Origin: a virus
Lineage: Duplodnaviria; Heunggongvirae; Uroviricota; Caudoviricetes
Strand: one strand, 5' to 3'
Length of the DNA: 4,295 nucleotides
IMG/VR virus record: IMGVR_UViG_2706794688_000008
Shown here: positions 3,441-3,652 of the stretch, piece after piece
How the letters are laid out: every line of letters starts with the position of its first letter
How positions within the stretch are numbered: the stretch's first letter is position 1
The notes under the pieces: generated by a model
Database searches by the model: none
What the model was told of the DNA's origin: nothing
The model's input: only the letters and a program-made list of their open reading frames with translations
Position numbers and translations under genes: made by a program

Positions 3441-3468
3441 AAATAAAAAAGCCTTCACTGCGGAAGGC
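3441..3468 (-). terminator. Rho-independent terminator after the 65-aa ORF
   Basis: The minus strand reads GCCTTC cgcagt GAAGGC TTTTTTATTT. The stem is 3468..3463 paired with 3456..3451, and the U-tract is 3450..3441. The stem overlaps the ORF stop codon (TGA 3457..3455). Confidence 0.75.
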
Positions 3469-3652
3469 GTCTGTAACAACCGAACTGATAGTCTGCCAGA
3501 CCCGCCATAACCAGCTGGGTCAGTATTAACTGGCAGCGTTCGCGTGAAAGGTAAGTATTCTGCGCTATCTCCCCGACTGTCGCCGGTTCGGTAACGCTTA
3601 ATTCATTAAACACCACTCTGGCGGTTTCTGTCATATCCTGCTGTTTTAGCAT
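3455..3652 (-). CDS. Small (65-aa) putative winged-helix/HTH DNA-binding protein
   Basis: ATG at 3652 is preceded by AAGGAA at about 6-nt spacing. The sequence ATVGEIAQNTYLSRERCQLILTQLVMAGLADY has a helix-turn-recognition-helix pattern. The family assignment is inference only. Confidence 0.6.
   Translation of the reverse strand: MLKQQDMTETARVVFNELSVTEPATVGEIAQNTYLSRERCQLILTQLVMAGLADYQFGCYRRLPQ

Follow-up and report, generated by a model that had tools for sequence, protein, structure and literature searches.

The minus strand of the 4,295-nucleotide (nt) stretch of tailed-phage DNA analysed here (Caudoviricetes; IMG/VR record IMGVR_UViG_2706794688_000008; hereafter the window) is the late-control region of a lambdoid prophage, and it carries a fixed three-part late-operon module that consists of a small gene, a structured leader RNA of about 135 nt and the gene for a non-specific N6-methyladenine (m6A) DNA methyltransferase. 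The small gene is an open reading frame (ORF) of 65 codons, ORF65, that runs from 3652 to 3455. Tentatively, and with the chances put a little short of even, we read its product by analogy as a dedicated nucleic-acid-binding regulator of the methyltransferase module that would act either through the leader RNA or through the module DNA; the binding of nucleic acid by ORF65, its target and the direction of control are all points that we infer. ORF65 itself is already annotated as a hypothetical protein and is very common, and what is new is the anatomy of the module, namely a winged-helix gene together with a structured leader and a non-specific methyltransferase. Our literature searches found no description of the function of the small protein, of its linkage to M.EcoGII-type enzymes or of the leader RNA. 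The parts of the module that can be seen in the window are these:

3659..3663, (-) strand: Shine-Dalgarno sequence AAGGA, read from the sequence
3455..3652, (-) strand: ORF65, a stand-alone winged-helix protein of phrog_331, from profile, fold and selection
3441..3468, (-) strand: t65, a hairpin and U-run that hold the ORF65 stop codon, from terminator scan and folding
3349..3437, (-) strand: methyltransferase leader RNA, visible 5' two-thirds, nhmmer E 3e-19 against the leader profile
3427→3397, (-) strand: leader hairpin P1 (the 'palindrome'), a perfect 12-bp inverted repeat
2241..3090, (-) strand: beta-class N6-adenine DNA methyltransferase, 282 visible codons, PF01555 E 7e-30

Runs of N mask the window at 1054-1327, 1683-1983 and 3091-3348, and the last of these covers the 5' end of the methyltransferase gene and the 3' third of its leader. 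The unmasked order can be seen in a 99.8%-identical Escherichia coli locus (L130), where Q is followed by the small gene, 150 nt, the methyltransferase gene (1050 nt), a tRNA-Ile gene and two tRNA-Arg genes.

ORF65 and its linkage to the methyltransferase

The original prediction had ORF65 lying directly before a methyltransferase gene. Its upstream position stood, but the gap between the two is about 150 nt, and the start of the enzyme gene falls in the N-run, where it is expected near 3305. Searches with the small protein gave 38 loci, in 7 phages and 31 species genomes and from 12 or more enterobacterial genera, and the expected co-occurrence of the two genes was borne out in them, as the methyltransferase start lies 134-154 nt after the ORF stop in 36 of them, a count that includes one locus with a premature stop in the small ORF (L031). 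The linked loci come from Escherichia, Salmonella, Klebsiella, Citrobacter, Buttiauxella, Proteus, Providencia, Plesiomonas and others, and the two loci without a detected methyltransferase are a 5'-truncated remnant (L023) and a contig that ends just past the leader (L025). When IMG/VR contigs were instead found via the enzyme, the ORF was present at the canonical distance in all 76 that were testable. No intact ORF65 was seen without the methyltransferase, and in phage records the enzyme family was found 95 times and the ORF 55 times. Such one-way dependence of the small gene on the enzyme is what one would expect of an accessory or regulator gene.

A related arrangement is found in phages N15, phiKO2, PY54 and PhiR46_1, where a gene for a 75-residue winged-helix protein, gp51, lies just upstream of the leader-methyltransferase unit (L039:1306-1530, L122:703-927, L123:692-922 and L125:706-930). 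Profile alignment (hhalign 93.7%, E 1.9e-7) makes it probable that gp51 and ORF65 are distant homologues. N15 gp51 and ORF65 have in common a winged helix beside this unit and an N-terminal MTE.A motif; however, they are only 22-27% identical, and a late promoter and a terminator between gp51 and the leader make gp51 a separate transcription unit.

The window methyltransferase shares 85% identity with phiP27 L24 and 65% with PhiOS31_p25, and by sequence similarity it belongs to the M.EcoGII / PhiOS31_p25 family of non-specific m6A enzymes, the non-specificity of the window copy being assigned from these relatives. PhiOS31_p25 methylates adenine in many sequence contexts, and the phiP27 protein NP_543076 was named as a homologue by the same authors (PMC7556043). 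M.EcoGII is likewise non-specific; its gene is carried by an E. coli prophage and is silent in the lysogen, constitutive expression is deleterious, and phage 1720a-02 was named as having a very similar enzyme (PMC5778455). We find that phage 1720a-02 has the same ORF-enzyme module.

The claim that ORF65 has a good Shine-Dalgarno sequence was correct, since AAGGA is found at 3663→3659, 6 nt ahead of the ATG at 3652, and a G-rich or purine-rich block of this kind lies 7-12 nt before the ATG in all homologous loci, its sequence being variable. An in-frame stop codon is present 26 codons upstream of ORF65, with no alternative start before ATG 3652, and we take this ATG as the start because the Shine-Dalgarno block is conserved. 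Versions of the protein of 93-106 residues that exist in databases are ruled out here by the in-frame stop. Selection was assessed over 304 pairs drawn from 37 loci in more than a dozen genera, and the ratio of non-synonymous to synonymous substitution rates (dN/dS) had a median of 0.28, was below 0.5 in 95% of pairs and was 0.03-0.15 within each ORF65 type; against phiP27, dN was 0 and dS 0.24. The helix-3 residues R39-C40-Q41-L42-I43-L44-T45-Q46-L47 are invariant while many synonymous codons are in use for them, which points to selection on the protein and not on the DNA. Frameshifts or decay in relatives would have spoken against a working gene; no frameshifts and a single premature stop were seen among the 38 loci, alongside the dN/dS of about 0.28.

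This premature stop, at codon 23, is in Mangrovibacter yixingensis (L031:3001-3069), where the leader and the methyltransferase are intact. In one Enterobacteriaceae genome (L023:2965-3156) the ORF lacks its 5' end, only part of the leader remains and the methyltransferase has been lost.

The ORF65 protein is 100% identical to phiP27 L23 (NP_543075), 94% identical to SfV orf47 and about 50% identical to a second allelic type found in mEp460, cdtI and Stx2c phages. It matches phrog_331, a family without an assigned function, over residues 1-64 (E 1.4e-37), and L23, orf47 and mEp460 gp52 are members of this same family, with no differences that would set ORF65 apart. Of 5426 complete E. coli genomes, 2933 (54%) contain the region, in up to 8 copies per genome. 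A profile search of 1.84 billion cluster representatives gave only 97 matches, many of them short fragments; this is a small family that stays separate from MarR and TrmB. All matches of ORF65 to Pfam and NCBIfam were below threshold, the best NCBIfam match scoring 12.4 bits against a cut-off of 90 and the match to TrmB (PF01978) scoring 18.0 bits (E 0.0026) against a gathering cut-off of 25.6, and it is on this sub-threshold Pfam match that the RefSeq name 'TrmB family transcriptional regulator' rests, as a guess at the level of fold. A sequence search of the PDB with ORF65 returned a chance match to YraP only (E 0.63).

It might be argued that ORF65 is a chance frame or a decaying, functionless remnant, given that it is short, that its annotation is either hypothetical or the sub-threshold TrmB name and that one locus has a premature stop and another a 5' truncation. 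This is very improbable, because the gene is under purifying selection with abundant synonymous change, has a confident predicted fold and a conserved Shine-Dalgarno block, and is found across Enterobacterales, its region being present in over half of complete E. coli genomes.

The leader RNA

The interval between ORF65 and the methyltransferase is the most conserved part of the region and holds a conserved structured RNA. Within it, the palindrome at 3397-3427 had been named as DNA to be tested for protein binding; a role as such a site is not supported, as the variation pattern is that of an RNA helix. The repeat folds at -29.9 kcal/mol (z-score -4.9). The 5' arm of P1 is constant and variants in the 3' arm give G.U pairs, which are valid on the transcribed strand only, and in Proteus both arms are altered together, GACUGUAAAAGUG with CACCUUUACAGUC. 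Because of these sense-strand-only wobbles and compensatory changes we assign the palindrome as an RNA helix and not as a DNA site.

Full copies of the leader are found, for example, at L002:3707-3850 and L039:1663-1806. When 33 distinct leaders were fitted to a five-helix model, 86.8% of the cells were paired, compared with 25-42% when the partners were slid by 1-3 columns; 13 pairs had changes on both sides, and the covariation score was reached by none of 500 shuffles. One helix, GGUCA.AAGC / GCUU..UGAUC, ends at the methyltransferase AUG and pairs positions about -1 to -12, with double changes in 5 of its 9 pairs and 81% of cells paired, and no canonical Shine-Dalgarno sequence was found at a normal distance from this AUG. 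An invariant UGGGC can pair either with GCUCA/ACCCA (95.9% of cells) or with GCCCA (100%, including one GC→AU double change in Mixta), a pattern that suggests two mutually exclusive conformers of the leader.

With the leader profile a single copy was found in each of 129 of 130 loci, in every case directly ahead of the enzyme; N15-type phages, OS31 and VHML are among them, and phiO18P is the sole locus without a leader. A search of the window and two full loci against Rfam 15 (E<=1) gave no sense-strand match to the leader, and the opposite-strand match to P26 (E 0.27) is at chance level. We also considered a small peptide that would start at an AUG in the leader (MGGWW...) and rejected it: its frame is shifted by indels between relatives, its length is 17 residues in Proteus and 33 in SfV, the frame being open in N15, and its sequence mirrors the covarying arms of the hairpin. 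The leader is a candidate new cis-regulatory RNA family for Rfam, and on its own it may be a riboregulator that senses either a ligand, such as S-adenosylmethionine or S-adenosylhomocysteine, or the enzyme.

The placing of the leader recalls phage Mu, where Com opens a translation-inhibition hairpin of mom (PMC6483171). Com, like ORF65, has some 62-65 residues and is encoded directly in front of a phage gene for a toxic DNA-modification enzyme, and in the present module too a translation start is sequestered in RNA structure beside the small gene. However, Com is a Cys4 zinc finger and ORF65 a winged helix that has no metal site and two cysteines (C40 and C59), com and mom overlap whereas 150 nt separate the end of ORF65 from the methyltransferase, and the mom hairpins are much smaller than the leader. 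One specific possibility is therefore that ORF65 is a Com-like RNA-binding translational switch that shifts the leader pairings to expose or to close the methyltransferase start. A covarying helix that pairs the nucleotides 5' of the AUG, the lack of a canonical Shine-Dalgarno sequence at the usual distance, the two alternative downstream partners of UGGGC and the small gene immediately 5' of the leader are all in keeping with such a switch, as are the existence of winged helices that bind RNA hairpins, such as those of SelB, which provide a precedent for ORF65 acting on RNA, and the Com/mom precedent of another toxic phage enzyme (PMC6483171). On the other hand, the leader is present without ORF65 in OS31 and VHML, no leader element specific to ORF65-bearing loci was found, gp51 of N15-like phages is in a separate transcription unit upstream of a late promoter, and the protein is acidic in many lineages. 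We regard a Com-like switch as unlikely on balance.

Fold, variable cassette and flanking signals

As had been predicted, ORF65 is modelled as a winged helix-turn-helix protein. AlphaFold2, run with a 22-sequence alignment, gave a winged helix with a predicted local distance difference test score (pLDDT) of 92.7 and a predicted template modelling score (pTM) of 0.80, with helices at residues 9-16, 26-33 and 37-49 and a beta hairpin at 53-62, and the elements are found in the order of a winged helix-turn-helix fold, that is helix 1, strand, helix 2 and helix 3 followed by a beta-hairpin wing. Foldseek searches of PDB and BFVD are consistent with a winged helix, the BFVD matches being to generic winged helices only. 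ORF65 differs from the MarR, ArsR, Lrs14 and TrmB winged-helix factors in that it does not have their dimerisation helices or effector domain, and in size it is akin to the stand-alone winged helices of Zalpha, RPA32C and SelB domains. A Zalpha-type Z-DNA binder was rejected by inspection, as the N/Y in helix 3 and the PPxW in the wing that make up the Zalpha signature are lacking. Across the family the net charge varies between -5 and +4, most lineages having an acidic or neutral protein; the window ORF65 has an isoelectric point (pI) of 5.1 and the methyltransferase one of 8.1.

A hypervariable cassette occupies ORF65 codons 12-38 (window 3539-3619, (-) strand). It can be seen most clearly when SfV and mEp460 (L002 and L003) are compared, since the cassette DNA is 47% identical between them while that of the upstream region, leader and enzyme is 91-97% identical and ORF65 codons 1-11 (MLKQQDMTETA) and 39-52 are 86-94% identical. 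At least 8 allelic types of cassette exist and natural hybrids are present, which hints at a function in specificity or in an arms race. The idea that the ORF65 type tracks the Q type was discarded because the Q genes of SfV and mEp460 are alike (the annotation of mEp460 gp50 likens it to SfV Q) and their leader and enzyme are near-identical, yet their cassettes differ.

These features raise the possibility that ORF65 is not a gene regulator but an accessory that binds protein or modified DNA, for instance as an anti-defence factor that would shield DNA rich in m6A from methylation-dependent (type IV) restriction, or as a reader of m6A DNA. The sharp bounds of the cassette, at 47% against 91-97% in its flanks, and the presence of at least 8 allelic types, a pattern common among arms-race proteins, would fit such a role, as would the acidity of the protein and its strict dependence on the presence of the methyltransferase. 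A winged helix at the C-terminus of DpnI reads methylated GATC. Also of relevance is that M.EcoGII was produced in a host strain whose genotype is deleted for mcrC-mrr (PMC5778455). Against this, no similarity to known defence or anti-defence families was found with PADLOC, which gave nothing meaningful for ORF65 or gp51, or in BFVD, the dN/dS of 0.03-0.15 within types gives no sign of ongoing positive selection, and the proposal is one of analogy alone. Given the acidity and the cassette, we treat a protein- or modified-DNA-binding role, anti-defence included, as a serious alternative, if a quite improbable one.

The remaining features that bear on expression of the module, together with its neighbours in the window, are:

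3877..4295, (-) strand: 3' part of the Q antiterminator gene, running past the window end, PF03589 Antiterm E 6.5e-32 and phrog_127
3834..3861, (-) strand: candidate late promoter PR' (TTGATT, 16 nt, TAAATT), read from the sequence
3770..3796, (-) strand: tR'-like intrinsic terminator with a 7-bp G+C stem and U-run, from terminator scan and folding
3674..3712, (-) strand: conserved promoter-like or operator motif upstream of ORF65, at fixed spacing in ORF-bearing loci
2041..2200, (-) strand: two tRNA genes, CAT anticodon and Arg-TCG, downstream on the same late transcript, from ARAGORN, Rfam 15 and annotation of relatives

The counterpart of the Q gene in L130 is annotated as 'antitermination protein'. 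The candidate PR' matches the consensus at 8 of 12 positions, which is under the promoter-scan threshold, and it is assigned as such because it is located between Q and tR'. ORF65 had been described as insulated between two terminators. Both are present in the window, but t65 is not universal among lineages. On the minus strand the tR'-like hairpin at 3796→3777 is followed by TTTTATGACT, and that of t65, at 3468→3451, by TTTTTTATTT; the terminator scan found 3 sites in the region where 0.7 were expected, and the hairpins fold at -12.9 kcal/mol (tR') and -8.9 kcal/mol (t65), with z-scores of about -2.5. The ORF65 stop codon, TGA at 3457-3455, is inside the t65 hairpin. At the tR' position a hairpin and T-run are found in most related loci. 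For t65, a canonical tract (at least 6 T in 8) is found only in E. coli-type loci, a strong U-tract is present in 9 of 37 loci, and the hairpin is absent from 9 Morganellaceae loci (Proteus, Providencia and Morganella); in Enterobacteriaceae the stem is kept through compensatory changes (pairs 18:29 and 19:28).

Between tR' and the Shine-Dalgarno sequence lies the motif cTTGCTG-N12-(C/A)AGAGTTAY-NTGTRTG, which is found at fixed spacing in all ORF-bearing loci, whatever their Q type, and is unmatched in N15 and OS31, both of which are without a detectable ORF65. It has the geometry of a promoter, with TTGCTG as a -35 element (3711→3706), 17 nt, and TAYNTG as a -10-like element (3688→3683), and would give a 5' untranslated region of about 35-45 nt. 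However, each hexamer agrees with the consensus at just 3 positions out of 6, the -10-like element has G as its final base, and the promoter scan made no call at the motif. Neither a consensus RNA fold nor dyad symmetry is found in the motif, and no base pairs of consensus RNA structure were found in the ORF65 5' untranslated region; a pairing of CUUGCUG/CAGCAAG with ORF65 codons 4-6 was rejected as it is broken in Proteus. A regulon was likewise rejected, the motif being present as a single copy in the entire SfV genome. The motif may be a Q-independent promoter, an operator or both. The original prediction held that ORF65 should be made only when Q is active; as a promoter-like motif is invariant in every ORF-bearing locus, expression solely under Q is uncertain.

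A second regulatory alternative is that ORF65 is a moron-like unit, independent of Q, that encodes a DNA-binding repressor or an antitoxin-like inhibitor which silences the methyltransferase in lysogens. It would account for the motif of promoter geometry that is invariant in all ORF-bearing loci with any Q type, has no RNA fold and is unique in the SfV genome, for the terminators on both sides in E. coli-type loci and for the pairing of an acidic ORF65 with a basic enzyme, and leaky enzyme is harmful (PMC5778455). A moron has its own promoter and terminator; what we find is a terminator that is in the window and not in all lineages, t65 being weak or absent in many of them, and a conserved motif with poor hexamers whose -10-like element ends in G, at a position that is normally essential, and which is negative in the promoter scan. 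There is also no inverted-repeat operator. We consider a moron-like unit to be improbable.

Several observations concern the neighbours of the module. The tRNA gene with the CAT anticodon (2125-2200, (-) strand) was called Met by ARAGORN and is annotated as tRNA-Ile (ileZ) in phiP27 and RefSeq E. coli; it probably encodes an Ile tRNA that carries lysidine. Window 821-1010, (-) strand, which lies downstream of the tRNA genes, is a full-length match to the Rfam small RNA STnc100 (132 bits, E 2e-29), and on the (+) strand at 460-795 an ORF of 111 codons matches the anti-adapter protein IraM (NF007393, E 4.7e-48; phrog_4407) and is named iraM in related Stx2 phages and L130. In phiP27 (L001:2056-3285) a gene for a GIY-YIG nuclease is inserted between Q and the small gene, the rest of the module being the same.

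A proposed regulator of the methyltransferase module

A likeness of ORF65 to the controller (C) proteins of restriction-modification systems had been suggested. It holds in part, since C proteins such as C.PvuII and C.AhdI are, like ORF65, small helix-turn-helix proteins encoded ahead of a timing-sensitive DNA-modification gene, and by this parallel a regulatory role is plausible. Membership is a different matter: C proteins have an Xre-type five-helix fold (PF01381), a palindromic C-box and an operon with a nuclease, whereas ORF65 is a winged helix with no such inverted repeat upstream, and the methyltransferase here is orphan, non-specific and phage-borne, unlike the enzyme of a restriction-modification system. 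The absence of a restriction enzyme was borne out in nine contexts, whose annotated neighbours are Q, the methyltransferase, tRNAs, stx or holin and lysis genes, with no nuclease partner. We conclude that ORF65 is a member of phrog_331 that is most likely to be likened, by analogy of action, to a C protein or to Mu Com while being a member of neither family.

A number of observations weigh against ORF65 being a nucleic-acid-binding regulator of the module. The enzyme is found without ORF65 in Serratia phage OS31, Vibrio phage VHML and Aeromonas phiO18P, and in OS31 and VHML-type phages the leader accompanies it. M.EcoGII (PMC5778455) and PhiOS31_p25 (PMC7556043) are active when expressed alone, and ORF65 is dispensable for catalysis. 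At 65 residues the protein is without the dimerisation helices of MarR and ArsR, and there is no inverted repeat of 8 nt or more between tR' and ORF65 that could serve as a palindromic operator. An acidic or neutral charge is unusual for a nucleic-acid binder, and with the charge range and the pI of 5.1 DNA binding by ORF65 is uncertain. Lastly, the cassette differs between phages whose leader and enzyme are 95-97% identical, so that its changes are not matched by changes in the RNA or DNA that is proposed as the target.

As M.EcoGII is silent in the lysogen and harmful if constitutive, the module controls an enzyme that needs to be off in lysogens and on late. If ORF65 is a regulator of the module, control could operate as follows. 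In the lysogen, tR', t65 and the closed leader would hold the enzyme off. After induction, polymerase modified by Q would pass both terminators, ORF65 and the enzyme would be co-transcribed, and ORF65 would then act on its own module. By the leader-RNA route, regulation would be at the pairing just 5' of the methyltransferase start, in the manner of Mu Com on mom; by the DNA route, it would be at the module DNA, in the manner of a C protein on its operon. The enzyme would in this way be kept silent in the lysogen and made late, guarding progeny DNA from restriction. A stronger version, which we think doubtful, is that ORF65, leader and enzyme together make up a post-transcriptional safety switch in which a winged-helix protein reads a two-conformer leader and gates translation; if true, over half of E. 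coli genomes would carry such a safety switch, and Mu would be solving the same function by Com/mom.

M.EcoGII-type enzymes have found wide use as tools, and in temperate phages, those with Shiga toxin among them, they are thought to serve as a defence against restriction. For keeping such an enzyme off in the lysogen and turning it on late, the module provides two concrete candidate control elements, a dedicated winged-helix protein and a structured leader that hides the enzyme start, and both are in the late transcript that in many phages also holds stx.

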